This document shows, in pieces, positions 3,471 to 54,450 of a stretch of DNA of 64,000 nucleotides; the stretch's first letter is position 1; the number at the start of each line of letters is the position of its first letter. The position numbers were made by a program, and so were the translations under genes. This stretch comes from Mobula hypostoma. Taxonomy: Eukaryota. Under the pieces are notes generated by a model. The model worked only from the letters and a program-made list of their open reading frames with translations. It was not told where the DNA came from and searched no databases. The stretch spans positions 130,884,001 through 130,948,000 of the forward strand of contig NC_086097.1 in NCBI RefSeq assembly GCF_963921235.1. Direction: 5' to 3'.

Positions 3471-3473
3471 CTC

Positions 3474-3568
3474 ACACAAAATGTTGGAGGAATGCAGCCT
3501 GCTGAGTTTCTTCAGTATTTTGTGTGCGTTTCTTGGATTTCCAGCATCTGCAGATTTTCTCTTGTTTG
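3474..3568 (+). mobile_element. Old Penelope-like 3' terminal fragment with short fold-back
   Basis: cacacaaaatgttggaggaa...gctgagtttcttcagtattttgtgtg hairpin followed by the family terminus tttccagcatctgcagattttctcttgtttg. Confidence 0.55.
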
Positions 3569-4774: not shown

Positions 4775-5460
4775 AATAGAGTCACACAACACAGAAACAA
4801 GCTCCTCGACCCAAATAGTTCATGCCAACCAAGACACCCATCCAAGCTTGTCCCAGATGTTCAAGTTTAGTCCACATCCTTCTAAACTTTTCCTATCCTT
4901 GTACCTGCCCAGCTGCCTTTTAAAATTTATTATTGTATCTGCATCAACCACTTCCTCTGGGAGCTCCTTTCATATACATAATTACCCTTTATATAAAAAT
5001 AGTTGCTCCTTGTGTTTCTATTAAATCATTGTCTTCTCACCTGAACCTATGCCCTCTGGTTCTTGATTCCTCAACCCTGGAAACAGAGACTGAGTACGTT
5101 CACCCTATATATGCCCTTCATGAGTTTATACACCTCTATAAAGATTGCCACTTATTCCCATACACTCCAATGGATCAAGTTCTAAGCCATCCAATCACTC
5201 TGAATTACTCAGTCCCTTCATTTCTGGAAACACACTTGCTAATTATTTCTAGGAAGAAGTACAGTTGACGTTTCGGGGGTCTCGGCCCGAAACGTCGACT
5301 GTACTTCTTCCTATAGGTGCTGCCTGGCCTGCTGCGTTCCACCAGCATTTTGTGTGTGTTGCTTGAATTTCCGGCATCTGCAGATTTCGTGTTTGCTAAT
5401 TATTTCTATACTCTTTACAGTTTAATAACATCTTTCATACGAACAGGGTGACCAAAATCT
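4775..5460 (-). mobile_element. CR1 3'-end fragment, interrupted by the PLE insertion at 5236-5408
   Basis: Resembles the reverse complement of CR1 3' ends elsewhere in the window (e.g. 63640-64000). Boundaries approximate. Confidence 0.55.
5236..5408 (+). mobile_element. Short PLE-terminal fold-back insertion with 16-bp TSD
   Basis: TSD ttgctaattatttcta at 5236-5251 and 5393-5408. Inverted arms taggaagaagtacagttgacgtttcggg / cccgaaacgtcgactgtacttcttccta. Ends in gcatctgcagatttcgtg. Confidence 0.85.
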
Positions 5461-11700: not shown

Positions 11701-12157
11701 CGCTTTGATTTCACTGCAACTTTATTGCACTGCAACTCATCCCAATGGCTACAAATTTGCTCCATCACCTGCCTGTCTTTCTTTTTCAATCTTTTTATTA
11801 ATTTCGAAGTATAGAAACAAAACATAGCAATAATACAAATAGTAGGAGATATTTGTTACACTTACGAAAAGTAATTGTAAAATCAAATAGTGTAAGTTAA
11901 CAAACCTCCCAATCATGTAGAACTGACAACGGATAATACAAATAAAAAAAAACAGCAAAAAAATCATGAAAAAGAAAAAAAAAACAAAAAAAAAACAAAC
12001 CCCATCCCCAAAGAAAAACAAAATTAATCAACTAAACTAAAAGACTTGGGCAAAACTAACAACTTAAAAATGGAAAAGAAGAAAACCTTAGTGTCGACGA
12101 CTCCATTCCCCTCCAACAACAATACAGAGAGATAAAACAAGTTTGGAAATGATCAAA

Positions 12158-15100: not shown

Positions 15101-15930
15101 TAGTTGAAAAGAAGAAATCAATCTGCTCCTTTATAAATTTGACAAAGTCCTGATCTTGAAGCAAAATAGGGTTAAATCACCATTGTCTGCCAGTACAAGA
15201 GGTGTCCATTAACTTGATGGAAAGTTTCATTGGAGCATGATCTGAAATAACAATACTGTCATAATTACAATCAACTACATATGGAATCAAATGAGAGTCA
15301 ATCAAGAAATAATCAATTCGGGAAAAAGAACGATGAACATGTGAAAAAAAGGAGAATTCCTTATCATTTAGATGTAGAAATCTCCAAATTTCTGAAATCC
15401 CAGAATCCAACATAAAAGAGTTAATAATAGTAGCCGACTTATTCGGTAAAGCCGGACTAGCTATGGATCTGTCCAACATGGGATTCAAACATAAATTAAA
15501 ATCACCGCCCATTATCAACATATACTCGTTTAAGTTACGAAAGGAAGTGAATAAGTGTTTAAAAAATTCAGGATAATCCACATTCGGAGCGTAAACAATA
15601 ACCATAGCAACCTTTTTTATTAAAAAGTACCCCAGTGATTAACAGAAATCTGCCATTAGGATCTGAAATAATGTCTTGATGAATAAATGTAATTATTGAA
15701 GGATCAATAAAAATTGAAACGTCTTTAATTTTGGTTTGAGCATTTGAGTGGTATTGTTGATCTTTCCAAAACTTAAAGAAGCGTTGATTGTCCTCTTTCC
15801 TTACATGAGTCTCTTGTGCAAAAATAATATGAGCATTCAGTCTTTGGAACACTTTGAAAACCTTTTTTCGTTTTATTGGATGGTTTAAACCATTTGTATT
15901 CCAAGAGACAAAATTAATAGTATGAGCCAT
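12158..15930 (-). pseudogene. L1 ORF2 (APE, RT, C-terminal Cys-rich domain), disrupted
   Basis: MAHTINFVSWNTNGLN, GGDFN, SRIDYF, SDHAP, KAPGPDGF, YRPISLL, SLDAEKAF, GTRQGCP, LYADDLLLY and CDRC...HMFWSC are spread over ~8 frames/stops. Confidence 0.93.
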
Positions 15931-16797
15931 AATTGAGAATTAACCCTTTGGTAAGTAAGGGGTTAACCATAATGTGAGCTCATGAAATCGGAAGAGGATT
16001 ACATGATTAAAGAGGAACCGGAAATCTCGACACTGCGGACATCTTTGTAGTTCTGAATCAGCCCAATAGAAAAAAATTAGAAAAGAAAAAGACTATCCCA
16101 TTCCCCCAATCCCAAGAACCCCAAACTAAGCCAAAGAAGGCTGAAGAAAGCTCTAAATAAAACTAATTCTAACCCCATTTCTGCAGGGGCAACTCCAAAA
16201 ATATATGTTAAATAGGTGACCTCCCAGAGACTAATATATGTAAAAAATAACCAGTATAATAATTAGTCTACATAGTAAAAATTACTAAAATATATGAAAT
16301 AAAAAAAACCTAGTCAATACGTATAATTAGTTATAGACGAGTAAATAAAAAATTGCTTCCAAAAGGAAAAAAAGGATTATGGGAAGAAGAAGCATAAGAA
16401 CATGGCGCCCCGAGAAAAAACAAAGGAGGTTATACAAAAAGAAAGACAAGTCGCCATTTTAATTATGCAAAAACCAAAAATAGGAAACATATAACTAAAA
16501 ATGATCGTCGGATCAGATCATTAATGATAACGAAAAAGGAAAAGTTAAAACAAAAGGTTAACTAAAGGAAAATGATGTTATTCATAGGAGATAAGTATTC
16601 TATATAAGTTATAGAATAACAACTATAGTAATAAACAAAGAACAAAAATCTTGGACTTATAAAAAACCTTCATCGCACAGTAGTAAAAGGTTTATTTTAA
16701 AAAAACACCAGAAAGAAAAAAAATTGGTGCTGGAAGCACCCAACACAGATTAAGAGAGGGTGTCTGTATCAAATGGGAAATTATCATCCAAAAAGCT

Positions 16798-17626
16798 TCA
16801 AGCGGCAGTTGTAGAGTGGAAGACACGACGATTTCCATCGGGAAGAGAGATTCTGAGATGTGCAGGATACAATAGTGCCGGTTTGAGATTTTTTTGATAG
16901 CATTCCGACATTAGAGGTTTAAAAGTCAGTCGTTCCTTCATCACTTCAGGACTGTAATCTTGAACTATCCTGAAGGAATGCTGGCGATACTTGATCATCC
17001 CTTGTCGACGAGCAGTCTGGAGAAGTTGTTCTTTAACATTGACATAATGGAAACGAAGAATAACTGGTCTGGGTTTGGAAACAGCCGCTGCCGACTTTAT
17101 CCACGGTATACGATGGGCGCGGTCAAGTAATGGAGGATCGTTGGAAAAAACTGAACCAAACGAATCCTTTAAAAGTTGAGCAAAGAATATTGCAGGGTCT
17201 CCAACCTCAACATCCTCGGGTAAGCCAATTAAACTTTTGTCTTCTCGATCGATTCTCAAGATCAATAACTTTGGATTTAAGTTGTTGGAGTTGTTTAGTA
17301 GTCGAAGCTAGATTCTTCTCTAAGATCTCAACTTTTGTATCCGTCTTCTGAGATTTAGTATCCAGTTCAGAAATTTTTGCACCGTGTTTTTGAACATCAG
17401 GATCTAGGGATTTCAAAGAGTCCGTGATTGATTTTAAATCTTCATTGAGGCTTTGACGATGTTGTTCAAATTGAGCAGTTAAACTTTCAGATAGTTTTAT
17501 CCGATGCTGCTCAAACATTTCCTCCATAACTTCATAAGTTAATTCCGTTTGTTTGGAATCACCTTTCTTCTTTCCTCCGTTCCCATCAGCGTCTTTCCCA
17601 TCTTTAGTTCTAGATCTTGTACTCAT
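16798..17626 (-). pseudogene. L1 ORF1 (coiled coil + RRM + CTD), one frameshift near 17230
   Basis: MSTRSRTK start, heptad region ending LENRSRR, then LIGLPE, LDRAHR, PRPVILRF, QDYS and LLYPA, which are typical L1 ORF1p motifs. Confidence 0.9.
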
Positions 17627-17917
17627 TTCTCTAAGCTCGAGAGTTACAGTTGACAAAAGGAAATCAATTAATCAGTAAATCAAGAAGATAAAGTAAATCT
17701 TCTGGTGTACTTAAAGTTGATTAGATCAAGGAGATCATAGGTTAAAAAAAGGATAACGGGAATGGAGCAAAGCCAAAGTGACGACCTCACTCCATGAGCG
17801 CTCCCTGCAGAATCTCCCGCCTGTCTTTCCTGACATCTTTACTGCTCACTATCTTAGATTTATTTCTGTTTTCTCCTTCCTCCGCTCTGTCATTCCGGTT
17901 CCCATCCCCCTGCCAAA

Positions 17918-18852
17918 TTAGTTTAAACCCTCCCTAACAGCTCTATTAAACTTTCCTGCCAGGATATTGGTCCCCTTCGGGTTCAGGTGTAACCTGTCCT
18001 TTTTGAACAGGTCATACTTCCCCCAGAAGAGATCCCAATTATCCAAGAATCTGAAGCCCTGCCCCCTGCACCAGTCTCTCAGCCACGCATTCATCTGCCT
18101 GATCCTACTATTCTTGCCCTCGCTAGCACGTGGCACAGGTAGCAATCCTGAGATCACTACCCTGGAGGTCCTGCTTCTCAGCTTCCTTCCTAACTCCTGG
18201 AAATCTCTCTTCAGGACCTCCTCCTTTGTCCTACCTATGTCATTGGTTCCAACATGTACCAAGACAACTGGCTGCTCACCCTCCCCCTTCAGAATATTCA
18301 GGACCCGATCCAAGACATCCCGTTCCCTGGCACCTGGGAGGCAATAACCATGCGGGTATCTCTATCAGGCTCACAGAATCTCCTGTCCGTTCCCCTGACT
18401 ATGGAATCCCCTACGTCTACCGCATTTCCCTTCTCCCTCCTTCTCTCCTGCACAACAGCGCCAGGCTCAGTGCCAGAGACCCAGTCACCGTGGGCATCCC
18501 CTGTCAGGTCATCCCCCTCAACAGCATCCAGAACAAGATATTTGTTGCTGAGGGAGACAGCCACAGGTGTGCTCTCCATTATCCAGGCATTTCCCTTCCC
18601 TCTCTTGACAGTGATCCAGTTTTCTGGCCCCTGTAGCCTACGGATGACTACCTCCCTGAAGCTCCTGAAAATCACTTCTTCACTTTCCCTGATAAGCAGT
18701 AGGTCATCAAGCTGCAGCTCCAGATCCCTAACACGGTCTCTGAGGAGCTGTATCTCGGTGCAGCTGGTGCAGATGTGGCCATCAGGGAGACTGGAGGTCT
18801 CCCAGGATTCCCACATCTGACACCCTGAACAAAGCACTAACCCTGCAGGCAT
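17918..18852 (-). pseudogene. CR1 ORF1 with N-terminal Cys/His motif, leucine zipper and SGNH/GDSL esterase domain (frameshifted near 18310-18350)
   Basis: CSGC...HICTSC, LRDRVRDLELQL, VGDSIVRG (block I), VHVGTND (block III), DRLHLN (DxxH). Confidence 0.88.
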
Positions 18853-19107
18853 GCTATCTAATTCTACAGGAATGAAACAGGAAAAATAAGTCTACTCACC
18901 CACTTACCTCGCCAAACAGACGAACGTTTTAAACCGTTAGTTTGTACCGTTAGCTGTGAGAGCCCTGCTGTTCCTGTCCATCCGGGCCGATTCGCGGGGG
19001 GGGGGGAGAACAGAGTTGGTGCTTCGCTCCTGCCTCATCCTGTTTACCGCCAAAGCCCTACACTCCGCTCCCACTCACTCCGCTGCCCGCTGTATAGGGT
19101 GGTCTCC

Positions 19108-20370: not shown

Positions 20371-20891
20371 TTCAGATATGAGCCAAATGGGACTAGCTTT
20401 CATTAGACTTGGTTGTCTTGGATGAGTGGGCCTGTTTCTGTGATCTATAAATCTATATACTGCCATATTTCCTTTTCAAAATGAAATCTGTTAATCTGAA
20501 AAGTTTCAACTCTTGTTTATCAAAATATATTTTTTGGGAACGTAACAACTGTATACTTCAGAAAGTGATCAGGCCTGTCAATAAAATTGAGAACTATGTG
20601 CTGTTATTAACATTATTTTGATGCCCTATTTTCTTCCCAAAGCAAAAACCTGCAGTTGACATCCCCCCCACAAGTAACTAGTCTATGAAAGCAAGTTATT
20701 AGCTACAAAAATGCATGTTAATTTCTGTGACAGTCAAAGCTTGTGAGGACAGTAATTTCTTGATGCTGCATTGGATAATGGCATACACTTATCTATCACA
20801 AATACATTTTGAGGAATATCCCGGCTCTGGTGCTCAGTCAGTTAAGACATGGTTGATCGCAGTCATGACAATGGAAGTGAGATAACTGGTC

Positions 20892-21209
20892 TTTCATGGA
20901 TTTAAGCCACATACATCAAAGTTGCTGGTGACAGGCCAGGCAGCATCTCTAAGAAGAAGTACAGTCGACGTTTTGGGCCGAGACCCTTCGTCAGGACTAA
21001 CTGAAGGAAGAGCTAATAAGAGATTTGAAAGTGGGAGGAGGAGGGGGAGATCAGTTAGTCCTGACGAAGGGTCTTGGCCCAAAACGTCAACTGTACCTCT
21101 TCCTGGAGATGCTGTCTGGCCTGCTGCGTTCACCAGCAACTTTGATGTGTGTGGCTTGAATTTCCAGCATCTGCAGAATTCCTCGCCTTTGTGTTTCATG
21201 GAGTTAAGC
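20892..21209 (+). mobile_element. PLE-terminal fold-back insertion with 16-bp near-perfect TSD
   Basis: TSD tttcatggatttaagc (20892-20907) / tttcatggagttaagc (21194-21209). An inverted copy and then a direct copy of the same terminus, each with ctgacgaagggtct..gcccaaaacgtc. Confidence 0.85.
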
Positions 21210-28867: not shown

Positions 28868-31123
28868 GAACCCTTAGTGGTAAGTGATCATAATATGATC
28901 AAATTCACTCTGAAATTGGAGAAGAAAAATCTTAAATCAGTTGTATCAGTATTACAGTGGATTAAAGGAAATCACAGAGGCTTGAGAGAGGGGTTGGCCA
29001 GAATTGATTGGAAAAGAACACTGGCAGGAATGACGGCAAAGCAGCAATGGCTGGAATTTCTGGAAGCAATTTAGAAGGCACAGGATATACACGGTACATC
29101 CCAGAGAGGAAGTATTCTAAAGGAAAAATGATACAATCATAGCTAACAAGGGAAGTCAAAGCCAACATAAAAGCCAAAGAGAGGGCATAGAATAGAGTAA
29201 AACTTAGTGGGAAGTTAGGGGATTCGGAAGCTTTTAAATACAAACAGAAGGCAACCAACAACATCATTAATGTAAAGATGGAATACAAAAGTAAGCTGGC
29301 CAATAATATTAAAGAAGATACCAAAAGTTTCTTCAGTTACATAAAGAGCAAAAGAGAGTCAAGAATGGATATAGGACTGCTGGAAAACAATGCTGCAGAG
29401 GAGGTAATTAGGGACAAGGAAATAGCGGATGAACTGAATAAGTATTTTGCATCAGTACTCACCGTGGAAGACACTAGCAGTATGGTGGAATTTCTAGGTG
29501 TCAGGGGTCATGAAGTGTAAAGTTACAATAACTAGAGAGGAGGTTCCTGGGGAAACAAAGTCTGAAGGTAGATAGGTCACCTTGACTAGATTATGTATAC
29601 TCCAGGGGTCTGAAAGAGGTGGGTCAAGAGATTGTGAAGGCATCAGTAAATATCTTTCAAGAATCAGTAGATTTTGGAATGGTTCCAGAAGACTGGAAAA
29701 TTGCAAATGTCATTCCACTCTTCAAGAAGAGAGAGGCAGAAGAAAGGAATTTATTGGCTAGTTAGTCTGACCTCACTGGTGTGGAAGATGTTAAAGAGTC
29801 GACTGTTAAGGATGTGGTTTCGGGGTACTTGCAGGAACATGACAAAATAGACCATAGTCAGCATGGTTTCCTCAAGGGAAAATCTTGCCTGACAAATCTG
29901 CTATAAACCTTTGAAAAAATATCAAGCAGGATAGACAAAGGAAAATCTGTTGATGTTGTGTACTTGGATTTACAGAAGGCCTCTGACAAGGTACCACATG
30001 ATGCTGCTTAACAAGCGACAAGCCCATATTATTACAGGAAAGATTCTAACAATGATAAAGCAGTCGCTGAATGGCAGGATGCAAAGTGTGGGAATAAAAG
30101 GAACCATCTCTGGTCGGCTGCCAGTGACTAGTGGTGTTCCACAAGGGTCTGTATTGGGACTGATTATTCTTATGCTATTTATCAATGACTTAGATGATGG
30201 AATTGTTGTCTTTGTTGCAAAGTTTGCAGACGATACGAAGCTAGGTGGAGGGGCAGGTAGTTTTACGGAAATAGGGAGGCTACAGAAGGACAGACAGATT
30301 AGGATAACGGGCAAAGTGACAGATGAAATACAGTGACATGAAATGTTTGGTCATGTAATTTGGTAGAAGAAATGAAAGGGTTGACTATTTTCTAAATAGA
30401 GAGAAAGTACAAAACTCTGAGGTGCAAAGGGATTTGAGAGTCCTTGTGCAGGATTCCCTAAAGGTTAACTTACAGGTTCAGTCTGTGGTGAGGAAGGCAA
30501 ATGCAATGTTAGCATTCATTTCAAGAGGACTAGAATATAAAAGCAAGGATGTAATGTTGAGACTTTAAAAAGTACTGGTGCGGCCTCACTTGGGAGCATT
30601 TTGTCCAGTTTTGGGCCTCTTATGGATGTGCTGAAACTGGAGAGGGTTCAAAGGTTCACGAAAATGAATCCAGAATTACACAGCTTGTCATATGAAGAGC
30701 ATATGATGACCTTGGGCCTGTACTCACTAGAATTTAGAAGAATGATGGATGACCTAGTTGAAACCTATTGAATGGTGAAAGGCCTTGATAGAGTGGATGT
30801 GGAGAGGATGTTTCCTATGGTGTGACTGTCGAAGACCAGAGAACACAGCCTTAGAATAGAGGGGTGTCCTTTTAGAACAGAGATGAGGAGGAATTTCTTC
30901 AGCCAGAGAGTGGTGAATCTGTGGAATTCTTTAACATAGGCAGCTGTAGAGGCCATGTCTTTATGTATATTTAAGGCCAAGGCTGATAGATTATTGATTG
31001 GTCAGGGCATGAAGAGATATGGGGGAAGGGGGCAGACAGGAGATTGGGGTTGAGAGGAATGGATCAGTCATTGTGAAATGGCTGAACAGACTTGATGGGC
31101 CAGACAACCTAATTCTGCTCCTA

Positions 31124-32743
31124 CAGTGGCATGCAAAGGTTTAGGCACCCCGGTCAAAATTTCTGTTACTGTGAATAGTTGAGTAAAAGACAAACTGATT
31201 TCCAAAAGTCATAAAGTTAAAGATGAAAGATTCTTTTCAACATTTTAAGCAAGATTAGTGTATTATTTTTGTCTTGTACAATTTTAGAGTGAAAAAAAGG
31301 AAAGGAGCACCATGCAAAAGTTAGGGCACCCCAAGAGATTTGAGCTCTCAGGTAACTTTTACCAAGGTCTCAGACCTCAATTAGCTTGTTAGGGCTATGG
31401 CTTGTTCACAGTCATCATTAGGAAAGGCCAGGTGATGCAAATTTCAAAGCTTTATAAATACCCTGACTCCCCAAACCTTGTCCCAACAATCAGCAGCCAC
31501 AGGGTCTTTAAGCAGCTGCCTAGCACTCTGAAAATTAAAATAAGTTATGGCCACAAAGCAGGAGAAGGCTATAAGAAGATAGCAAAGCATTTTCAGGCAG
31601 CCGTTTCCTTAGTTCTTAATGTAATTAAGAAATGGCAGTTAACAGGAACAGTGGAGGTCAAGTTGAGGTCTGGAAGACCAAGAAAACTTCCCTAGAGAAA
31701 TGCTTGTAGGATTGCTGAAAAGGCAAATCAAAACCCCCGTTTGACTGCAAAAGACCTTCAGGAAGATTTAGCAGACCCTGGAGTGGTGGTGCACTGTTCT
31801 ACTACTGTGCAGTGACACCTGCACAAATATGACCTTCATGGAAGAGTCATCAGAAGAAAACCTTTGCTGTGTCCTCACCACAAAATTCAGCGTCAGAAGT
31901 TTGTAAAGGAACATATAAACAAGCCTGATGCATTTTGGAAACAAATGCTGTGGACTAATGAAGGTAAAATAGAACCTTTAGGCTGCAATGAGCAAAGGTA
32001 TGTTTGGAGAAAAAAGGGTACAGAATTTCATGAAAAGAACACCTCTCGAACCGTTAATCACGGGGTTGGATCAATCATGCACTGGGTTTGAGTTGCAGCC
32101 AGTAGCACAGGGAACATCTCATTGTTAGAGGGAAGAATGAATTCAATTAAATACCAGCAAATTATGGAAGCAAACATCACACCATCTATAAAAAAGCTGA
32201 AGATGAAAAGAGGATGGCTTCTACAACAGGATAATGATCCGAAACACACCTCAAAATCCACAATGGACTACCTCAAGAGGCGCAAGCTGAAGGTTTTGCC
32301 ATGGTCCTCACAGTCCCCTGACCTGAACATCATCGAAAATCTGTGGATAGACCTCAAAAGAGCAGTGCATGCAAGACGGCCCAAGAACCTCACAGAACTA
32401 AAAGCCTTTTGCAAGGAAGAATGGGCGAAAATCCCCCAAACAAGAATTGAAAGACTCTTAGTTGGCTACAAAAAGCATTTACAAGCTGTGATACTTGCCA
32501 AAGGGGGTGTTACTAAGTACTGACCATGCAGGGTGCCCAAACTTTTGTTTCGGGCCCTTTTCCTTTTTTGTTATTTTGAAACTGTAAAAGATGGAAATAA
32601 AATAGTAATCCTGCTTAAAATATTAAAGAAATGTGTCATCTTTAACTTTATGCCTTTTGCATATCAGGTCATCTTTTACTCACTTAGCTATTCACAATAA
32701 CAGAAATTTTGACCAGGGGTGCCCAAACTTTTGCATGCCACTG
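31124..32743 (+). mobile_element. Full-length Tc1-family (IR/DR type) DNA transposon, 1620 bp
   Basis: TA at 31122-31123 and 32744-32745. Termini CAGTGGCATGCAAA...TTTGCATGCCACTG. ~210-bp inverted repeats with inner direct repeats (catgcaaaagttagggcacccc ~31311; gggtgcccaaacttttg ~32531). Confidence 0.95.
31499..32523 (+). pseudogene. Tc1 DD34E transposase, inactivated
   Basis: GEGYKKIAK, RSGRPRK, WTNE (first D mutated to N), QQDNDPKH + 34 aa + E (SPDLNIIENLW). In-frame stops at ~31693, ~31813 and ~32089. Confidence 0.92.
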
Positions 32744-35359
32744 TATATCTTATGGTCTTACTCTAACTGCTACATTACTGCGCCATACTGGTGCTGTGAG
32801 ACATTTAAATGGTTGTAACCATTAGTAGTAGCTATAACCATTGAAGTTCCTCACAGCATCTTCAGACCTGGGATCAATCTTTATCGTCCCTATGACCATG
32901 AGACTCTCCTTCAGGTGGTTCAATTTCCTTCCTCATTCTGACTTATGCAGTTTGATAGGTTAATTGGCCTCTGAATTACCCCTTGTATGTGGTAGAATGT
33001 CTTCAGGGTTATTAAGAATGTGGGAGAATACAAAGAAAGGATTAATGTAGGGCTAGTGTAAATGAGTGGTAGATAGCCAGCACCAACATAGTAGGCCAAA
33101 GGTCCTGTTGCCATGTTATAATTTATAGACAGGCAGCTTGAGTTTGTGAATCCAAACTGGAGAACAATTTTTGCTAACACATTTACTCTACTAGTTTGCT
33201 GCGTGAAATTGGGAATTGTAATGTACCTCTTACATCATCGGTTCAAGTTAAACGAAAAGGCATAATATTTATGTTGTGAAATTCAGCTGAGGTCAGTACA
33301 GGAAATCAAGTCTTGCTGCTCGAGTTTTTAAGCAGATTTTGAATAAGGCTGTCGGGTCTTGGTGACAAATAATAAAATCTATTCAGTTGAAATGAGAAGA
33401 GGGAAGAAATTTCTGTACAATTATGTAAATGATTGTAATGGCAATGACAATAACACTGAGGCTTTCAGCATTCATAGTTACAATGAAAGAAATCTGACAA
33501 CTGATGACGCAAACAAATGCATAGCCAGATGTAGAAATTTAGAAGTTGCTGCTCCTTTTTGGCTGTAGTGGTCTTCACCAAGCAATTCAAGAATCAGCGA
33601 ACTGATGACAACCTCATTGATTTGCAAACTATTCTTGCTGTTGAAGATAACAAAAATTGCCATGCCTTGTTGTATGATTAAATTGAGCTTTTAGCAGTGA
33701 ACTAAACAATAACTACTGATAAACAATCTGTTCAGTTTCAGGTTTGACTAATATTATTTACTGTATTTACTTGGTCCTAAAATATTGATGAAAGGTTAGA
33801 ACTCTACTTCCTGGTTTAACTACCTGCGAGAATTCTTTGAACTGTCTGGTAGTTCAGACTATAAACATCAGAAATCCCAAGAGAAGGTGAAGCCGATATT
33901 ATAAATATTTCTAGTACCTTGTGGATAGCTGTCTTCCAGGCAGGCAACAAACAATATTATCTTGCAACTTACTTGAAAAATCCAGGTCAGTATTTCCATT
34001 AAAATTGCAGCTTGTCAAGGCAGCAAATCATGCTTCAGAAATGCAAATTATCAAATCCAACTAAATATTTTGGCAATCTAATGGTCATAGACCAGCTAAG
34101 ATTTAATACATGAGGACCAGAGACAGTAGCATCATTAACAAAGCAACACAAGTCCCATTTTACAATGTCGGGGACTCACAATTTGTTTCATGAAAGGAGG
34201 GGTGCAGCAGAATGAACTTGGATTAAATAAACAATATTTAGCCTGGTGGAACATTTATAGACACAAAAAATAATTAGCTAAGTGTTACAATTCGGGGCAC
34301 ATCACGCTTTTTCCTTTTATCAGTAATACGAAGGTATGGTTCTCTCAAATCTTGTTAAATAATTATGAAAGCCAGTGCATGAAGAAGGCAAAAATCACCA
34401 CTGATGCTCATTAAATTGTCTTTATTCATAACATGGCGTTTCATGACATAAAATGAACGCTAGGTCAATAAAAATAATTAAATGTAAATGCCACTGTATG
34501 GATTTTTTTTATATAAATCAGCACATAACCAATCATTGCAATTACAATGATCTCAGAAACAAGTAATACATTCACCTGATCACAGAAGCTTAAGACAGTG
34601 TCCAAGACTGGGCAAGGTGCCAGAAAATGCGCATCAGAAGTGACTGCGAAACCACAAGAAATCTAACCTGGGTTTTATAGTCCTCACAGCACAGCAATCT
34701 TAAATGACTTGTTGAAATTTTAATTCTCTGATCTCATTAAGTGGCCTGGGATGATAACAAAACCTGAGAGGTATCATCTCCTCTTAAGTAAACCTCTGAA
34801 ACTTTACAGGCTGATTTACTGCAGCCATCACAAAATATAAAGTTACAATATCCAATATATGATGGCACTGATAACTTAATGACATTGTCATATTGATGCA
34901 AATTTAGATGACTGACAACTACATGCACTGAATACTGCTATTCTGTCGAGTTACATCATGCAGGAAGCAGCTCTAATTTAATCCCAAGAACACAGTCTCC
35001 AAGATGTACCAGTGTCAGAGTTTGAGCAACTTCTAACACTACACAGGTAGATTTGTACTCTGGACTCGCCATTCAAAAAGAAAGTTAATCTTCCATCCAC
35101 AATTAAATATTAACTGCAAATGCGCAGGTAGAAATCAGCAATGCAAAATGTACTTGGGTGGTTTTTAATGCAGTAATGAAGCTGTAACTTTTAGTGTCCA
35201 GGTATCTGTGCTTTACATTAATGTCATTTTGACATTAGCCCAGTAGGTGGCATTCCATATACATAAATAGTTTTGGTAAAATGCCATTTATAAGATAAAG
35301 TTTTCTGATATATAAAAAAACATTACTTTTTATTCAAACATTTAGACATTTATTCCACT

Positions 35360-35790
35360 CAATTCAGTCCTTACCCCACCTACATCCATGACACTTCACA
35401 TGCTCTCAATCTGAACAACTTTCAATTCCCCCAACACTTCGTCTCATTTTCACCATGCACATCCAGCCTGTATACAATTCTATCAGAAAATTAAGGAGAC
35501 CTTACAGCTCTCTGCTTTTTTTTCTTGGCTCTCCACTACTACCATCCTCCACCTGGCAAAACTAGTCCTCTATTAATTCTCCTTCAGCTCTTCCCACTTT
35601 CTCCAAACTCAAAGCGTAGTCATGGGCATCCGCATGGGCCCCAGCTATGCCTGCCTTTTCTTTGGCTACATTGGCTCAAAGCCTTCCCTGGTAATGGTCT
35701 CCAACTCTTCCTCTGCTATACTGACAACAGCATTGGTGCTGCTTCATGCACCCATGCTGAGCTCGTCAATTTCATCAACTTTGCCTCCAA
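35360..35790 (+). mobile_element. Penelope-like element RT fragment
   Basis: MGIRMGPSYACLFFG (PLE MG..MGP.YA.LF motif) and a degenerate LFLCYTDNSIG (RYIDD) motif. Confidence 0.7.
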
Positions 35791-36917
35791 CATCCATTGG
35801 ATTAAGGTCTGGACTCTGACTTGGCCATTCCAAAACACAAATTTTCTTCTTTTTAAACCATTCTGTTGTTGATTTACTCATGTTTCAGATCGTTGTCCTG
35901 TTGCATCATCAAACTTCTATTAGGATTCAGGTGATGGACCACTACCCTGACATTCTCCTGTATAATGCCTTGCCCCAAACCATGATGCTCCTTCCACCAT
36001 ACTTCACAGTTGGGATGATATTTTGATGTTGGTGTGCAGTGCCCTTTTTCCTCCAAACAAAGCAATGTGCATTTCTGCCAAAAAGATCAACTTTCATCTC
36101 ATCAGTCCACAGAATATTGTGGAACATCTCAGTGGTCTTTTGCAAACTTGAGACATGGAGCAATTTATTTTTGGAGAGTAGTGGTTCCCTCTGTGGTGTC
36201 CTTCCATGAACACCATTCCTGTTCAGTGTTTTTTCTTATAGTGGACATATGAACAGAGACTTCAGCAAGTTCCAGGATTTTCTGCAGGTCTTTTGCTGTT
36301 ATCCCTAGGTTCTTTATCACCTCCTTCAGCATTGCACATTGTGTTCTTGGTGTGACTTTTGCAGGATATCCACTCCTAGGGGGAGTAGCAACAGTGCTGA
36401 ATTTCCTCCATTTCTAGACAATTTCTCTTACTGTGGACTGATGAACACTCAGGCCTTCAGAAATGCTTTTTTGTAGACTTTTCCAGCTTCATGTATCCCA
36501 ACAATTATTCTTCAAAGGTCCTCTGAATGTTGTTTTGATCACGGCATGGTGCACATAAACAGATTTTTCTTGAGAACAGCAGGCTCTGAAAGTAACCTGA
36601 CTTTGTGTGTTCTTTTTATAGGGCAGGGCACCTCAACAACCCACATCTCCAATCTCATCTCATTGACTGGAACACCTGACTCCAAATAGCTTTTGTAGAA
36701 TGTATTACCCCAGAGGTACACACACTTTTTGAACCTAGACTATGATTGTTTAAATGGTGTACTTGGTATTGAAGGGAAGTAGTACAATTGTTTGTGTGTT
36801 ATTAGATTGTGTTTGTCTGTTATTGTGACTTAGATGAAGATCAGACCACAGTTTACGAGTACTTAATGCAGAAAACCAAGTAATTGCAAGGGGTTCACAA
36901 ACTTTTTCTTGCAACTG
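35791..36917 (-). mobile_element. 3'-truncated second Tc1-family transposon, inserted in the PLE
   Basis: Minus-strand terminus TA|CAGTTGCAAGAAAAAGTTTGTGAACCCC at 36917. Transposase remnants ILWTDEMKVDLFG, PTVKYGGRSIMVWG and MQQDNDLKH. Confidence 0.85.
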
Positions 36918-36919
36918 TA

Positions 36920-37455
36920 AATTGGGGACCGCTTTGTGAAGCACCTCTGCTCCACCTGACAAAAGCTGAATTTCTCGATGACCAACCATTTTAATTCCTC
37001 TTCCCATTCTGACATACCAGTCCCACAGCCTCTTCTGCCAGGATGGTAGCCTCCAACATGATGGCAGGAACATCAATTTCTCCTCGCAGTCATTTTTTCC
37101 CTCTTTTTCTTTACCCATTCCCCCTACCCTCTTCTATTCCCTGCTCAAATCTCTTACCTTTTCTCTTTGCCTACCTATCACCTCCCCCAGTGCCCCTCCT
37201 TCACTTTTTCCCATGGTCCACTCTCCTTTCCTATCAGATTCCTTCTTCTCCAGCCCTTTACCTTTCCCTTTCACCTCCCCTCACCTTTTAATTCTGGGGT
37301 CTTCCCCCTTCCCCTCCAGTCCTGATGAAGGGTCTTAGCCCAAAACGTTGACAGTTTATTCATTTTCATAAATGCTGCCTGATCTGCTGAGTTGCTCCAG
37401 CATTTTTTCTGTGTGCTGCTCTGAATTTCTAGCATCTGCAGAACTTCTTGTATTT
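36920..37455 (+). mobile_element. PLE GIY-YIG C-terminal remnant and 3' terminus
   Basis: ttggggaccgctttgtgaagcacctc (LGDRF.EHL-like), ggtagcctccaacatgatggc, pyrimidine tract, agtcctgatgaagggtcttagcccaaaacgttgac, gcatctgcagaac terminus. Confidence 0.75.
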
Positions 37456-40400: not shown

Positions 40401-41199
40401 AGGGCCTCAAGATGGCTGTGGCTCAAAAGAGGGGAGCCATGGAGTCATAAGTAGCTAGCCAACTGGACACAAGCTGGGGTCTGATCAGCCCCGGCTGGGT
40501 CACCTGGAAGAGGCTGTATGATGTTGAAAGACTCGAAACACCCAATGATTCCAGGAACATCACTGAAGATGTGTCCAGAAGCATCAATAGATGTATGTAC
40601 ACAGCAGTGTTCGATATGGAAACACTAATCAGAGGTTCTGTAACAATGAGCACAGCAATTCATAAAAGACGCTACGTACTACCTTTCAGTGATCACTCAT
40701 GGGAAGCATTAGTATATCTGACAAGCCAAGTGAGTCTGGGGGTGGGGGGGGGGAGGCTAGTGTAGGAGATGGCATCCTTATGGAGAAGGAGTAACACACA
40801 CACACAATGTTTGAGGGACTCGGTAGGTTAGGCAGCATCTATGGAGAGGAATAAGCAGCTACCATTTCAGGCCAAGACCCTTCCTCAGAACAAATGGAGA
40901 AGGAATATGATCCAAACCAGCTGCTTAAAAATTTGAACTATGGAATGCAAAATATAGCAATGAATCTCCCTGGGCTGAGGCACTAGTTACCTGCATCCAC
41001 CTGAGCTAGATAGGAAGTAACACCATACTCTCGCAGTCCAGATCTGGGAGGCTGGCAATGGGGTAGAGACTGTGGTGAGACAGCTTCAGGCATTGTTGTT
41101 ATAAGGACAGGCCCCTGGACAGGGCAGATACCCTTTGACAGAAGAAAGAGTAGTGGGCAGAGCTTGCTCATTGTCAAAGCCAATGAGGCATTATACTAA

Positions 41200-41660
41200 A
41201 CAAGGGTCAGCAACTTTAAATTTCTCGGTGTTATCATTTCAAAGGACCTGTCCTGGCCACAGCATGAAACTGCAATTACAAAGAAAGCACAGAAATGCCT
41301 CTACTTCCTTAGAAGTTTACGAAGATTCGGCATGACATCTAATACTTGACAAACTTCTATAGCCGTGTGGTGTAGAGTATATTGACTGGCTGCATTACAG
41401 TCTTGTATGGAAACATGAATGCCCTTAGATAGAAAAGTAGACGATGCCGCCCAGTCACCACAGGCAAAGCCCTCACCTCCATTGAGCACATCTATAAGGA
41501 GCGTTGTCACAGGAAAGCAGCTTGCTTCCATCATCAGGTATCCCCACCACACAGTTCATGCTCTTCTCACTGCTGCCATCAGGAGGGTGGTACCGGAGCT
41601 GCAGGTCTTACACCACCAGGCTCAGGAACAGTTATTACTTCTCAAACATCAGGCTATTAT
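41200..41660 (+). mobile_element. Rex1/Babar-like LINE ORF C-terminal fragment; its tail continues ~42200-42300
   Basis: FKFLGVII-like, then LYFLRSLRRFG-like and SIIRYPHH..LLPSGGWY motifs. Confidence 0.6.
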
Positions 41661-42195
41661 CAGTCCACGGCCTCCTCTATTGCCGCAATGAGGCCACACT
41701 CAGGCTGGAGGAGCAACACCTTATATTCCATCTGGGTAGCCCCCAACCTGTTGGCATGAACATCGATTTCTCACATTTCTGGTAATGCCCCCCTCCCTCT
41801 CTTTCACCATTCCCATTTCCCTCTCTCACCATATCTCTTTGCCTGCCCATTACCTCCCTCTGGTGCTCCTCCCCCTTCCCTTTCTTCTAGGGCCTTCTGT
41901 CCTCTATCAAATTTCCCCCACCCAACCGTTTAACTCTTTCGGCAATCGACTTCCCAGCTCTATACTTCACCCCTCCCTCCTTTTGGTTTCACCTACCACT
42001 TTCCATTTCTTCCTTCCCTCCACCCAACCTTCTTACTCTGACTTCTCATCTTTTTTCTCCAGTCCTAACAAAGAGTCTTGACCCGAAATGTTGACAGTTT
42101 ACTCTTTTCCACAGATGCTACCTGGCCTGCTGAGTTCTTCCAGCACTTTCTGCTTTGCTTGGATTTCCAGCATCAGCAGATTTTCACTTGTTTCT
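41661..42195 (+). mobile_element. PLE GIY-YIG C-terminus and 3' terminus nested in the Rex1-like fragment
   Basis: SVHGLLYCRNEATLRLEEQHLIFHLGSPQPVGMNIDF, followed by the pyrimidine tract and a degenerate hammerhead-like segment. Confidence 0.75.
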
Positions 42196-42754: not shown

Positions 42755-43519
42755 TTTCTTAAAGGTAACACACATCAAAGTTGCTGGTGAACGCAGCAGG
42801 CCAGGCAACATCTCTAGGAAGAGGTGCAGTCGACATTTCAGGCCGAGACCCTTCGTCAGGACTAACTGAAGGAAGAGCTAGTAACAGATTTGAAAGTGGG
42901 AAGGGGAGGGGGAGATCCAAAATGATAGGAGAAGACAGGAGGGGGAGGGATGGAGCCAAGAGCTGGACAGGTGATAGGCAAAAGGAATACGAGAGGATCA
43001 TGGGACAGGAGGTCCGGGAAGAAAGACAAGGAGTGGTGGGGGGGGACCCAGAGGATGGGCAAGGGGTATATTCAGAGGGACCCCTCGTATCCCATCTGTT
43101 ACTTATTTTTATACACACATTCTTTCTCTCACTCTCCTTTTTCTCCCTCTGTCCCTCTGAATATACCCCTTGCCCATCCTCTGGGTCCCTCCCCCCCAAC
43201 TCCTTGTCTTTCTTCCCGGACCTCCTGTCCCATGATCCTCTCGTATTCCTTTTGCCTATCACCAGTCCAGCTCTTGGCTCCATCCCTCCCCCTCCTGTCT
43301 TCTCCTATCATTTTGGATCTCCCCCTCCCCCTCCCACTTTCAAATCTGTTACTAGCTCTTCCTTCAGTTAGTCCTGACCAAGGGTCTCGGCCTGAAACGT
43401 CGACTGCACCTCTTCCTAGAGATGCTGCCTGGCCTGCTGCGTTCACAAGCAACTTTTATGTGTGTTGCTTGAATTTCCAGCATCTGCAGAATTCCTGTTG
43501 TTTGCGTTTCTTAAAGGTA
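42755..43519 (+). mobile_element. Young PLE-terminal fold-back insertion: ~315-bp inverted arms, 69-nt spacer, 13-bp TSD
   Basis: TSD tttcttaaaggta at 42755-42767 and 43507-43519. Arms 42768-43081 and 43151-43465 are near-perfect reverse complements. Confidence 0.92.
42828..42863 (-). ncRNA. Minimal type I hammerhead-ribozyme-like motif
   Basis: AGUC-CUGACGA-AGGGUCUCGGCCU-GAAA-UGUC-GACU: conserved CUGANGA and GAAA boxes, GUC triplet, helix I AGUC/GACU, and essentially no helix III. Activity not demonstrated. Confidence 0.6.
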
Positions 43520-45505
43520 CATCTGTTGAGTATATTGTCTTCCCAATTTTTAGATGTAATGTTGAATTTCTTCAAGCTGAATTTGATATCATCTTTGAAG
43601 CATTTCCTCTGCTATCCGGGGGCTCACTGACCTTCCTCCAGCTTGAAAGTAAAGGATCCGTTTAGGCATTCGGCATCCGAATAACATGACCTAACCATCA
43701 GAGTTAGTGTTGCTTTATTGTGGTGGAAATGCTGTTCATGTTGGCCTCCTCCAGTACGCTGGTGTTAGTGCCTCTGTCCTTCTATACGATCTTCAAAATC
43801 TTTCATTAGGATCTTTGGTGGTATTGTTCCAGGGCTTGTATGTCTATTTTAGGTGGCCCATGATTCAACACCATACAGTAATGGTTCCTTACAGTAATGG
43901 ACTGCTTTATAGAGTATGTTTTGTTTGGATCTGTAGGTCATGATCTTCAAATACTTTTTTCCTTACTCTTGCAGAGACTCCACTAGCACTACTCAAGTGG
44001 TGGTTGATCTCCAAGTCAATGTCGGCTTTTGATCTCTGAGTCAACCTCTGCTTTTGAAGAGGGAATGCTGGTAAGATAGAGAAAAGTACCTATATTTTTA
44101 AGGGCAATATTTTCAACTTTTATTTTCTGATGGGCTGCATAAATGGCTGGTTGGGAAGTTGGTGATATAGGATCTGTGACTTTTGTTTTACTCAAAACAA
44201 GACCCAGGGCTCTATATGCCTTGGTAAGAGTGTTCAGAATACATTGGATGTCTTTTGTCAGAGTGTACTCTGACGGCGTTGTCATCCGCATACTGACACT
44301 TCAAGATAGAGGTGGTGCTGCCCTTGTTCTTGGTCCTGAACCAGTTGAGGGCTGAAAAGCCTGTTGTCCATTCTATACACAATTCGGATTCCCTGTAGCA
44401 GGTCTTGTCTAATGAGGTGCAGGATGGCAGCTACCCAAAGATAACAAATAGTAAGGGCACAATGATATAGCCCTTCTGACTCCTGTCTTAACAGTGAAGA
44501 GTTCTGATTCAGCACCACTATTGTTGAGCACTGTGGTTGACATGGCATCATGCAGTAACCTCAGTTTTCATGAGTACTTATCAGACAACCATGTCTTGAT
44601 AGTATATGCCAGAGAGCTTGGCAGCTATTGTATTAAATGCCTTTGTCAAATCTATGAAGGCCAAGAGCAAGGGTTGTCTTTGTTTACAGCACTTTTCCTG
44701 TAACTGGCATGCTGTGAAGATCACGTCTGATATCTCTAGATGGGACAGAAACCACACTGTAATTCAGGGGGTACTTCTGCAGATAATAGAAGTCGGTGTC
44801 AAGGATTCAGTAAGTGCAAGCACTTTATTGTTGATGGGGGGAGATGCCCCTGTAATTGCCACAATCTGCCTTGTCTCCCTTCTTGAATGTCATTATCAGA
44901 ACCTGAGTTCTGAGGGTAGTTGTTCCTTTTCCCAGACTTTCAGGAGGAAGGCATGTATGTGGTGTAGAAGGGTTGGTCCACCTTCCTTGACAATCTCTGC
45001 TGGGATCTTGACAGAACCAGTGGCTTTGATGCATTTCAGACTCTTGATGGCATCAGACTATGAAGTTCCCCAATGCCTTCCTTCACAGATCTCTACAGGA
45101 TTTGGTTAGTAGCCTTTGGTTCAGCATTGCTGTCGTGGTAAAGAAAACCTTGGAAGTGCTCTCTCCATTGATTGTTACTATTCCTCCAATCCTTTAGCAA
45201 GTCCTTCCTATCCTTTGAACATGGGGTTTAATCTGAACTAATTTGGAGGTTACAACTGCTTTGGAGGCACTGAAGAACCCTTTTGTCTCACAAAAGTCTG
45301 CCAGTACCTGGATTTCTAGGGCTTTCTCAGTACATCAATAATTGTTTAGCTCCCTCACCTTGTGCTGAGCATTTGCCTTGGCTCTGGACTAAGCTTCTCT
45401 TTCGGTCTTGCCGCCAATGTCATTCTGTCGGGTACAAAGAGCTTTCCTTTTCTTGGAGATAAGTTATTCCATCACATGTCATTATCATCAAACCAATCCT
45501 GACTG

Positions 45506-48620: not shown

Positions 48621-51600
48621 TTAAACTCAGTATCATTCTATTAAAAAGTTTTTATGACTTGGTTCTATTTTATAACAAAGTAAATGTTTCAAGAGCAAGT
48701 GCTTGATTGTAAAACACCTTCAAGTCTTCATTATTCCACAAAGCTTACATAATTAATAAGATTACCAATGAGTAATTGGCTCAAGCACACAGAATACTTC
48801 TCATGCTTTGAATGTACTTTGAACCCTCATCTCCCTATCTTAAAGCATCTAGTTAAACAGCATTAACTACTAAGAATGCTTAAATCTATCAGTTGTGCCG
48901 ACACATTAAATGTCTCTCAAATCACAGGTAGGGTTGGCGACTGTATAGTTAACAATGAATACTTTACTGTAAGTTATGAATAAGTAGCTATAAGAGTAGT
49001 TCCAACTTTTCTAGTCTGTAAATGACTTTCTGAATAAAACCATCACCACTTCACAGCACAATTCAGTTTTTTTAATGCAAAGTCCCATTCAGACTTCAAA
49101 CAATCTGTATGAGGAACTCAGCAGGTGGAGTAGCATCTACAGCAGGAAAGATATTGTCAATATTTTGGGTTAAAACACTGTCTGTATCCCCATTCAAGCC
49201 TCACATGCAAAAAAAGGAGGAACAGGCCAGGTAGTATCTATGGGAGATTCATTTCCAGCATTTTGTGTCTTCCTCAAGATCTCCAGCATCTGCAAAATCT
49301 GTGTCCCCAGCATTCAAGCTTCACCTGCCTTTGAGAAATAGCATAAGCAAACCCATGCTTTCTTGAGGAGGACAGAGTTCTTAACAGTTCACTAGAATTC
49401 TGAAAATAAAGCCACCCTACAGATAGGAAGCTGTTTTTATTTTAGAAAATGCAATTTTAGAAAAATTGCTATTTATGTAATGGCAAAATGACAAATTCTT
49501 AAAAGAGTGAGTTCAGACAGCTTCACATAGAACTACAAGTAGATTCAATTAATTATCTGATTGAACACTGCAGTAATGATTTTTTTTTATTTCCCAGCTC
49601 AATCTTCATGGGTAATGTATGTTACAGTTTTGCATTGCCAAAAATTTCAAAATGTGGGAAACAATTTCTAAGTAAGTAGGTGGGCACATTGGAGCTACAA
49701 TGGCTTGCATAACTTAAAAGCCGTTTATAAGCAGCAACGCAGCATCACATAATTCAGATGCCTCAAGCATGGAATAAATTATGTATCCTGCTGGTTATTT
49801 ATGATATTAATTTCTATTTTAACAACACAAATAATCAAGAAGTTAATGGAAGCAAGTATTTGCACATATATACACATTTGTTTGCATGGTAGAAATGCAA
49901 TTACATTCTTAAAATATAAGCAATTACTTGACTTCTTGGTTCGCAAGTACAGCAGGAATTTACCCTTTCAGATTTGTTTGCACCATTATACAGCTTTGGA
50001 TAACATAATGAAGGATAAATTGCTCCTTATCAGTACAGATTGTCAAGCACATATTAACTGGAATTTCAAACAGCTGGACTATAAAATACTTCTAATGCAT
50101 GATTTTAATCAGTTAGCCATATGTGTTTTGCAAGAAAGCTCTACATTGTGAATACCATTTTCATTTTTGTATTTCAGCTAAAGATCGAGAATACTAATGA
50201 CACATTAACTGGTCTGGTTACTTCAAGTTAGTTATCTTTTGATCACCAACTGCCTCCTGGTCCTTGAATTGATCACTCCGAATTTAATTGTTCTTCCAAT
50301 GGCAGATTAGCCTTCAGCTGCCAAGGTCCCAAGCTGTAGTATTCTCCCTCTACACTTCACCATAACACTTTCTTTGAAAGCTTTTTTTTAAAAGCTTCCT
50401 TCTTCAACCTTTCCTCATGCCCACAGTGACCCTGTACAAGTTTAGAATGATAACTGCTTCGATAAACTGCCCTGGATTTGAGGTGGTTTAGAAGATTTGT
50501 CACACCCTCTTAGATTATACTGATTAATTTCCTTTATCTCCAAGTATTAGTCCCCCTTTCCTTCATATGGTAATCTTTCATTAACAATACAGGCAAGGAA
50601 CATGCTTCTTCTACCTGTCCATACATTAGTTCTGAATTTTAAAAGGCCCATTCTTTTATATTTACTATCTTGGCAGTCAACAAATTTAAAACAATGTATT
50701 TTATTATTTCGTAACATTGTTGATGCCCACATACAAACTAATGGCTGCTTAGTGAACCACTGATGCTCAAGTGTGCAGATACTTCAGGGTGGAGTTTTTT
50801 TTAAATCAGTGCTAAACATGGTTAGCTGGCTGCTGATCTTGAAAAGAAAGTAAAATATGAATTTTCCCAGGCAACTATGCCTATACAACATTGCAAGATT
50901 GTCTCTGTGAAGGCCTTATGCGTTCAAAGGTACATGATTTGTGGTAACTCAAGGATATCTAGCACAAATTAAGGAAAACTTCAAAGACTTAACTCTTAGA
51001 AAATAAAAATAAAATGATATTTGCAAGGATCAAGAACAAAAGGCACGCAGGATAAATGTTACCATCATTCAAATCTAAAGAAAGTTGGAAAAATCCAAAA
51101 CTCTTGAAAGCCAAAGTCAAAAATCTTGCCAAAGTATAAAAATGTGTTTTTAAACTATCTAGGTATTCCATTAAATTCTTACCAGTTGCTCTCAACCAGT
51201 TCACTCCATTCTAGGGGAACATACTCTATGCATTGCTTCAGAGCAGACACAGAAATCTGTGATACAATTCTTCTCCCAAAATAGTCTCTGTGAGGAACAT
51301 ATCCCACTGGCTATTAACAAATAACTCAAAGCAACTTCCAAGATTTCCAGATTCAAACATGGAACTTTCATGGGGTAATCACAGTGAATGCTAATTGTTC
51401 CACTGTCACAACTCCTCAATATTTGGGCTAACATTTTTCCCTAAAATCACAGCAGCAATATCTGCAAAACACTAGCTCTGCTCAGCTGACATGCGCCTGA
51501 CTCAGTCTGAATACTTCGAATCTGCAATACTCTTTGGACACAACAAAATTAAACAACATGTATTCAATAGCCATGCTCGAAACCTTACCAGTTTAAGAAA

Positions 51601-54014: not shown

Positions 54015-54450
54015 GGTGCACCCCAAGCTCTGTCCGCCAGAAGCAGAATCTCCCAGTGGCCACCTATTTTAGATCTACTTCCCACTCCCAAATGTCAATT
54101 CATTGCCGCCTCTACTGTCACAATGAGGTCACACTCAGATTGGAGGAACAACACCTTATATTCCGTCTGGGTAGCCTCCAACCTGATGGCATGAACATCG
54201 AATTCTCAAACTTCCGACAATGCATCCCCACATCCCCACCCCAAAAATTTCTCATCTCCTTTTCCCTCCCTCACCTTATCCCCCTCCTCTGATGCTCCTC
54301 CCTCCCTTTTCTTTCTTCCATGGCCTTCTGTCCTCTCCTATCAGACTCTCCCTTCTCCAGCCCTGTATCTCTTTCACTAATCAATTTCCCAGCTCTTTAT
54401 TTCATCCCTCCCCCTCCTCTCCTATCACCTTCTGTTTATCTTTCCCCTCC
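54015..54450 (+). mobile_element. PLE GIY-YIG C-terminal fragment between CR1 5' UTR (~53760-54010) and CR1 ORF1 (~54460-54850) pieces
   Basis: NLPVATYFRSTSHSQMSIHCRLYCHNEVTLRLEEQHLIFRLGSLQPDGMNIEFS. Confidence 0.75.

Follow-up and report, generated by a model that had tools for sequence, protein, structure and literature searches.

Insertions of Penelope-like elements (PLEs) show a complex anatomy that is already on record. An inverted, 5'-truncated copy at the 5' end together with a 30-40-bp tail has been described (Craig et al. 2021, PMC8557442), a tail of this length is also described in PMC11167929, inverted pLTRs with 8-10-bp target-site duplications (TSDs) and a 31-bp tail have been reported (Arkhipova et al. 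2013, PMC3846280), and inverted pLTRs and 3' extensions are listed as routine in PMC8969392. PLE ends also carry minimal hammerheads, with opposite-strand pairs lying 100-700 bp apart (Cervera and de la Pena 2014, PMC4209133). The origin of the inverted ends and of the tails is called undefined in three papers (PMC8557442, PMC11167929, PMC3846280). In vitro, a PLE has been seen to cut the target on both strands and to extend each of them, and reverse transcription (RT) begins at two sites that bound the tail, the initiation site being reportedly not homologous to the cut DNA (PMC11167929); self-priming on an antisense template has been favoured elsewhere (PMC3846280). Retrozymes, by comparison, consist of units in head-to-tail tandem, each with its own hammerhead, and those of animals have been argued to derive from PLE pLTRs (10.64898/2026.07.22.740005).

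The window analysed here is a 64-kb stretch (64,000 nt) of Mobula hypostoma contig NC_086097.1, and all coordinates below count from its first letter. It holds an insert of 739 bp (42768-43506) enclosed by two identical 13-mers, the left TSD at 42755-42767 and the right TSD at 43507-43519 (13/13 identical, a direct repeat that no boundary pair out of 2000 random ones reproduced, the null maximum being 10). Within it, an inverted, 5'-truncated and tail-less copy of a PLE end, or pLTR (42768-43081, minus strand, 314 bp), is the reverse complement of 43151-43465, the 315 bp of the plus-strand copy of the PLE 3' region with which it pairs. Aligned with one another the arms show 9 substitutions and 1 gap in 315 columns, the longest perfect run being 66, and either strand of the insert is predicted to fold into a single long stem (-665 kcal/mol and z -53 for the plus strand, -675 kcal/mol and z -41 for the minus strand, each against 20 shuffles). 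A 41-nt tail (43466-43506, plus strand) is found on the direct copy only, with contig loose ends at 43503-43509. The sequence-only reading of a ~740-bp insert with a 13-bp TSD and a near-perfect 315-bp hairpin is thus borne out; the tail, and further fold-backs at 20889-21209, 5236-5408 and 49191-49324, come in addition to it.

One element of that reading has to be redrawn. The 69-nt loop (43082-43150, plus strand) had been treated as a spacer, a part in its own right, but it is the 5'-most part of the direct copy, which as a whole spans 43082-43506. This follows from two sets of contigs, X1, possibly from the source sample, and X5, from organism B and another study: upstream of 43081, family contigs (13 in X1, 30 in X5) go on into a stop codon and into the same beginning of the UTR. 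Since they continue past 43081 into the end of the open reading frame (ORF), the first base of the direct copy lies about 11 nt beyond the stop codon of the family, as the contig loose ends before 43081 place it. The loop has high family depth in the contigs and stands in the same order in two other copies in the window (41657-42193 and 54026-54450). The insert has no coding capacity, as had been proposed: none of the three long stop-free frames across it matched Pfam, and none of 71 homologues of the endonuclease end matched the insert. Two exact-pattern scans of metagenome contigs returned 0 loci.

The insert is a 5'-truncated PLE. Its Penelope-like origin, claimed at first from the sequence alone, is upheld by a link within the window from the same UTR to C-terminal peptides of a GIY-YIG endonuclease; the link was found at two places, 41657-41779 and 54026-54217, both in older subfamilies (63-70% identity). 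The peptides are 69-73% identical to the C-terminus of two stingray proteins, P0001 and P0002, stingray being the source of the closest named proteins; neither short window peptide matched Pfam (0/2), and P0001 and P0002 match the GIY-YIG model PF01541 at E 0.002 and 0.0008, below the Pfam cutoff. Right behind the first peptide lies a homologue of the direct copy (41797-42193, 65% over 411 columns), and behind the second another (54281-54450), the UTR homology scoring 210 against a shuffle maximum of 63. The older copy at 41657-42193 (plus strand) accordingly runs from GIY-YIG C-terminal peptide and stop codon into the same UTR, a decayed hammerhead and a tail, and that at 54026-54450 (plus strand) from peptide to UTR, cut off before the hammerhead. 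A third, older and broken copy (35532-37451, plus strand), found by tblastn with P0001/P0002 and by blastn, retains putative RT-region pieces (35532-35845), endonuclease pieces (36921-37082) and UTR, hammerhead and tail (37077-37451). The N-terminal part of P0002 matches 35532-35845, collinear with the endonuclease and UTR pieces; Pfam gave no RT match on P0001 or P0002, the motifs taken as RT were recognised by eye, and no full-length ORF was seen.

P0001 and P0002 carry a CX3-4CxxC linker, and a CX2-5CxxC linker lies upstream of GIY-YIG in 6 of the 8 proteins that, among 71 homologues examined, contain the GIY-YIG core; it is absent from the window, where that part is missing. Such a linker marks the Neptune and Nematis clades (PMC8557442). 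The relatives of the window's ORF end share with these C-terminal GIY-YIG PLEs the RT region, the CX2-5CxxC linker and a GIY-YIG domain with two internal cysteines, and by their linker we describe them as Neptune/Nematis-type, a putative assignment that does not tell the two clades apart. The PLE endonuclease end is also seen fused into four annotated gene models (P0002, P0003, P0015 and P0034, with kinase-domain, VKOR-like, GPCR and RecQ5-like names), which is either annotation contamination or exonisation by the PLE family. Nothing specific on this ray family, nor on twin priming in PLEs, was found in the literature covered, to which few subscription papers and repeat databases belong, so that this absence is not proven.

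Set against complex insertions of endonuclease-bearing (EN+) PLEs, the insert is ordinary for its class, and its inverted tail-less 5' copy is an already published PLE layout. The head-to-head truncated 5' copy, the tail at one end, the TSD, the 5' truncation and the pLTR hammerhead are all shared. Here, however, the direct copy is too truncated to contain any ORF and the inner junction lacks a palindrome, and the TSDs in this window are longer (13-19 bp) than the 8-10 bp given for rotifer EN+ PLEs (PMC3846280). The in vitro behaviour of the Anolis Poseidon element PAc (Frangieh et al. 2024, PMC11167929) offers a likeness in its two RT starts bounding the tail, the extension of both strands and an AT-rich target, but PAc belongs to another clade, and its authors describe target and start site as lacking homology and, in the text consulted, draw no connection between two-strand extension and inverted copies.

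Further fold-backs stand in the same window, in which 11 family loci were counted (three weak blast matches, E 0.2-0.55, being left out). Three are clear and have TSDs, namely the main insert (A) and two others (B and C), one is probable (F) and one doubtful (E). Fold-back B (20889-21209, plus strand) has an inverted tail-less arm of 144 nt and a direct copy with a tail of ~39 nt, within a TSD of 16-19 bp with 1-2 mismatches. Fold-back C (5236-5408, plus strand) has a 26-nt inverted arm and an exact 16-bp TSD. In the older F (49191-49324, plus strand) the TSD is 14 bp with 1 mismatch, and the inverted arm scores 41 against a null 95th percentile of 31; copy E (3455-3568) scores 27, under its null 95th percentile, has no TSD, and was for this reason ranked doubtful. 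TSD lengths thus run to 13 bp in A, 16-19 in B, 16 in C and 14 in F, with none found for E. In A and B the inverted arm has its outer end at the tail boundary; in F and E this end is close to the boundary, and in C it comes about 50 nt earlier. The inner junctions differ between A, B and C, and that of A (43081/43082) is unique among the 11 family loci of the window, from which we infer that the fold-back may be a by-product made anew at each insertion rather than a replicating unit.

In fold-back B the inverted arm holds about 48 nt of 5' sequence that are absent from the direct copy, and the direct copy holds a tail that is absent from the arm. As each arm has private sequence, two separate syntheses are indicated, barring later deletion, and B would therefore be the best evidence in the window for two primings. 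Two observations concern targets: the duplicated target of B ends complementary to the start of the element's tail (7/8 Watson-Crick), and that of F resembles the complement of the region between arm end and tail start over ~14 nt, which suggests that look-alikes of the element's own end may be chosen. Elsewhere, a minus-strand family piece (40790-40905) that stops close to the tail-less site stands as a solitary tail-less end, no direct partner being seen next to it.

The hammerhead-like motifs were parsed element by element against features given in PMC4209133, and a minimal core was recovered in both arms, in keeping with the sequence-only reading, though damaged in both. The left-arm motif, a minimal type-I form (42828-42863, minus strand), retains G8, has a T at 15.2 and a G.U pair at 10.1-11.1, and is the sense motif on ATP9B pre-mRNA; the right-arm motif (43370-43405, plus strand) has the same G.U pair and G8 changed to C (43379). 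In common with the minimal hammerheads of metazoan PLEs (PMC4209133) the motifs show CUGA-N-GA, a bulged base, stem II, GAAA-C-GUC and a palindromic 15.2-16.2, but both copies here are mutated at conserved positions, the 10.1-11.1 pair among them. G8C abolishes cleavage in an anole PLE hammerhead (PMC11167929), and T at 15.2 in the left motif breaks the palindrome needed for the dimer (features from PMC4209133). Neither motif matched the Rfam hammerhead families, and the folds of five single hammerhead segments were no more stable than those of shuffled sequences (z +0.5 to -1.1), an outcome to be expected of minimal motifs. A transcript of either strand would carry a single sense hammerhead, buried in the predicted duplex.

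Two non-CpG variants bear on the common origin of the arms. Family contigs have another letter in 97-99% of the depth (X1, X5) at 43348/42885, and in 95-98% at 43247/42986, while the arms share the rare letter at both. Together with the single pair of TSDs, these variants, absent from 95-99% of the family depth, sustain the claim of a single insertion event. At sites where family contigs differ from the window, the arms agree at 11 of the 12 listed sites checked. The variants support derivation of both arms from one RNA or one donor locus, alternatives that they cannot separate, nor do they exclude later conversion. The motif gcctgaaa, offered earlier as the mark of a single template, is indeed present in both arms but does not serve as proof: it is a C>T change at a CpG, and the same state is found in three unrelated older copies (the 60953, 40894 and 54945 regions), while B and the copy at 37318 show opposite-strand CpG decay at this site.

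The insertion had also been called young, which is true relative to other copies in the window but overstated, its left junction being shared with a second organism. Over the full arm, the arms of A differ at 9 of 314 positions against 62 of 721 between insertions (p 0.0005); within the part that B and C also contain, the counts are 5/101 and 17/182, which is not significant (p 0.25). Between flank pieces of organism B (X5) and the window there are 6 differences in 660 bases, compared with 9/314 between the arms (p 0.027), and arm divergence above flank divergence is consistent with an insertion that predates the split of organisms A and B. At the shark mutation rate of 7x10^-10 per generation (PMC10587355), 1.5% per arm corresponds to an order of 10^7 generations, a crude figure with a rate borrowed from another lineage. 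The fold-back would then have been decaying neutrally since before the split, with no function of its own.

The PLE family is extremely abundant. Summed contig depth over the insert is 0.6-6.8 million as against 19-30 in clean X1 flank bins, a ratio that is not a copy number. Among the 24 of 1778 loose ends that were listed, one recurrent terminus lies at 42765/42767, with 73+167 X1 contigs and 156 X5 contigs, and another at 43503-43509. Joints of inverted to direct arm were reported 807 times, and the 15 listed all lie at places other than the A junction; none of these 15 is an empty-site joint. Their positions are biased by where alignments meet private or subfamily mismatches. Thirteen of the 15 leave the inverted arm at 42854-42876, near the 5' edge of the hammerhead; this cluster could reflect a preferred stop, a palindromic junction or an alignment effect, and we do not accept it as a hot spot, since alignments stop at such mismatches.

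The locus itself has the order TSD, inverted tail-less end, direct end with tail, TSD, its family is linked to a GIY-YIG ORF end, and it is intronic. We consider it very probable that an abundant PLE with an endonuclease was inserted here, dead on arrival and doubly 5'-truncated, and that its inverted end arose from two-strand priming and cDNA joining as a by-product of insertion. Under this model the PLE protein would cut both target strands 13 nt apart, leaving two 13-nt 3' overhangs. The bottom-strand end would prime a cDNA from the far end of the tail, giving the direct copy, and the top-strand end would prime a second from the tail-less start site, giving the inverted copy, with short pairing between target and RNA probably assisting the latter. 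Both cDNAs, templated by one RNA or by one donor locus, would stop early and be joined head-to-head through 1-2 nt of microhomology, and the ~315-bp duplex in pre-mRNA would be a side effect. L1 twin priming is a familiar counterpart: there too a second cDNA is started from the top-strand end of the target, and microhomology joins the inversion. The two parts of an L1 barely overlap, whereas here both cDNAs cover one and the same 315 nt, and the place where the second one starts is mostly fixed. The model is drawn from three clear, one probable and one doubtful insertion among 11 loci in one window. Against it stands that the two arms of B differ at 7 of 96 positions, as much as unrelated copies do.

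Target complementarity is the more tentative part. The top-strand target end pairs with RNA just past the tail-less site over 5 positions in A, 10 in B and 8 in F, wobble included, with null fractions of 0.013, 0.0002 and 0.0005 respectively, the pairing in F having been noticed post hoc at an ambiguous boundary. Pairing in C amounts to 2 positions against its own direct copy, and in E none was seen. An 8-position pairing of C against the A sequence is not significant, since 8 positions are attained at some point by 10.6% of 500 random ends. In all four runs the consensus of the loose ends at 42767 closes with complementary letters, although partial tails would look alike. That the family's fold-backs record two-strand priming with a top-strand target end selected for complementarity to the tail start (in B and F, weakly in A) may be the case, but the odds are somewhat against it. 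A target so selected, as proposed for this ray family, would differ from the homology-free initiation reported in vitro for anole Poseidon (PMC11167929).

Could the inverted arm instead be the product of a single cDNA? In the same PLE insertion, one cDNA might have snapped back over a 69-nt loop and been copied to the tail boundary, or an antisense template might have primed itself, as PMC3846280 proposes. This would explain near-identical arms with shared rare variants from one template, and in A and in C the inverted arm falls wholly within the span of the direct copy, so that copy A taken alone is compatible with it. The private sequence of each arm in copy B nevertheless argues that B cannot stem from one snapped-back cDNA, barring later deletion. 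The arm also stops at a fixed tail boundary that equals the RT start site in vitro (PMC11167929), and at the inner junction of A there is no palindrome and microhomology amounts to a single nucleotide; we therefore regard this route as unlikely. Much less probable still is that independent templates or events supplied the arms and gene conversion within the inverted repeat later homogenised them. Inverted repeats can undergo gene conversion, and the region-matched distance between the arms is not significantly under that between copies, but both arms are enclosed by one TSD pair, no inner TSD is present, and the differences are evenly split between the arms and along their length.

The suggestion that the insert is a non-autonomous, ribozyme-bearing and retrozyme-like element, a fold-back cassette replicating as a unit, does not survive the comparison. 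Like the non-LTR retrozymes (Li et al. 2026, 10.64898/2026.07.22.740005) the insert is non-coding, pLTR-related and furnished with a type-I hammerhead, here one motif in each arm, and animal retrozymes are, as said, argued to descend from PLE pLTRs. Retrozymes are, however, head-to-tail arrays with same-sense hammerheads (10.64898/2026.07.22.740005), whereas the insert is head-to-head with a single sense motif per strand, no tandem units occur at its locus, and its two hammerhead cores are opposite in sense and both mutated; on these defining features the retrozyme reading fails. The inner junctions of A, B and C are moreover all different, and the contigs that pass 43081 (13 in X1, 30 in X5) enter the end of the ORF and not an inverted arm, so that we assign a replicating cassette scarcely any probability. 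An assembly artefact, from a chimeric or fold-back read, is less credible again. No listed contig spans the whole insert, none covers a junction with 31 letters on either side of it, and X1 may itself be the source sample; against this, the arms differ at 10 columns, the TSD is exact, X1 contigs showing 0 differences reach at both ends from the flank 20-21 nt into the element, and the same layout recurs within the window. A contig of organism B, from another study, passes from the left flank through the TSD and 21 nt into the inverted arm, the left junction being the only one among the X5 pieces listed. We retain the two-strand-primed PLE insertion as the likeliest explanation of the locus.

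As to the surroundings, shark and chimaera ATPase IIB/ATP9B proteins match the minus strand by tblastn, residues 246-277 at 51873-51778 and residues 276-304 at 586-500. These are two consecutive coding exons, so that the insert is intronic (the intron, 587-51777, minus strand, is ~51 kb) and the pre-mRNA has the sequence of the minus strand, which bears out ATP9B as the host gene. The ~315-bp stem anticipated in ATP9B pre-mRNA is likewise predicted, from the fold of both strands and the intronic position, as a duplex with a 66-bp perfect run. ADAR editing of this stem, or endo-siRNA production from it, is a plausible candidate by analogy; siRNAs matching inverted Penelope copies have already been reported in Drosophila (PMC3681739). 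Two contig runs guessed to be RNA show the same change types as the DNA runs (A>G 2 and T>C 2 in all four), and contigs pooled from a whole family cannot show editing at a single locus. One guessed-RNA contig on unique flank (43740-43871, depth 2.7) was not accepted as proof of transcription. Rfam gave 0 matches at gathering score over the whole window; at E<=10 there were 15 sub-gathering matches around the insert, none to a hammerhead family, and these were set aside, since for the most part they belong to hairpin models of plant miRNAs, which would match a long stem of any kind.

Other repeats are visible nearby. A 1.6-kb element with long terminal inverted repeats (31122-32745) contains a transposase-like frame (32092-32523), and we take it from its look to be a Tc1/mariner transposon. 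About 1.1 kb of unrelated sequence (35790-36900), presumably Tc1-like to judge by eye, separates the RT and endonuclease pieces of the broken PLE copy. On the minus strand, a LINE (12434-17671) whose endonuclease/RT frame is broken and has an ORF1-like frame upstream of it appears by eye to be L1/Tx1-like, and LINE pieces with RT, endonuclease and esterase-like ORF1 frames (9058-11855 and 17918-18891) are presumably CR1-like.

Taken singly the locus matters little, being one decayed copy among very many, and its value is as a member of an example set. A family that leaves 3-5 TSD-bounded fold-backs in these 64 kb offers a cheap test bed for two-strand priming against snap-back and for target complementarity. 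If its fold-backs do record two-strand priming at complementary targets, thousands of copies could settle, by counting, how the inverted ends of PLEs form, and many intronic fold-backs of this kind could be the main source of long nuclear dsRNA in these fish, a counterpart of inverted Alu pairs.
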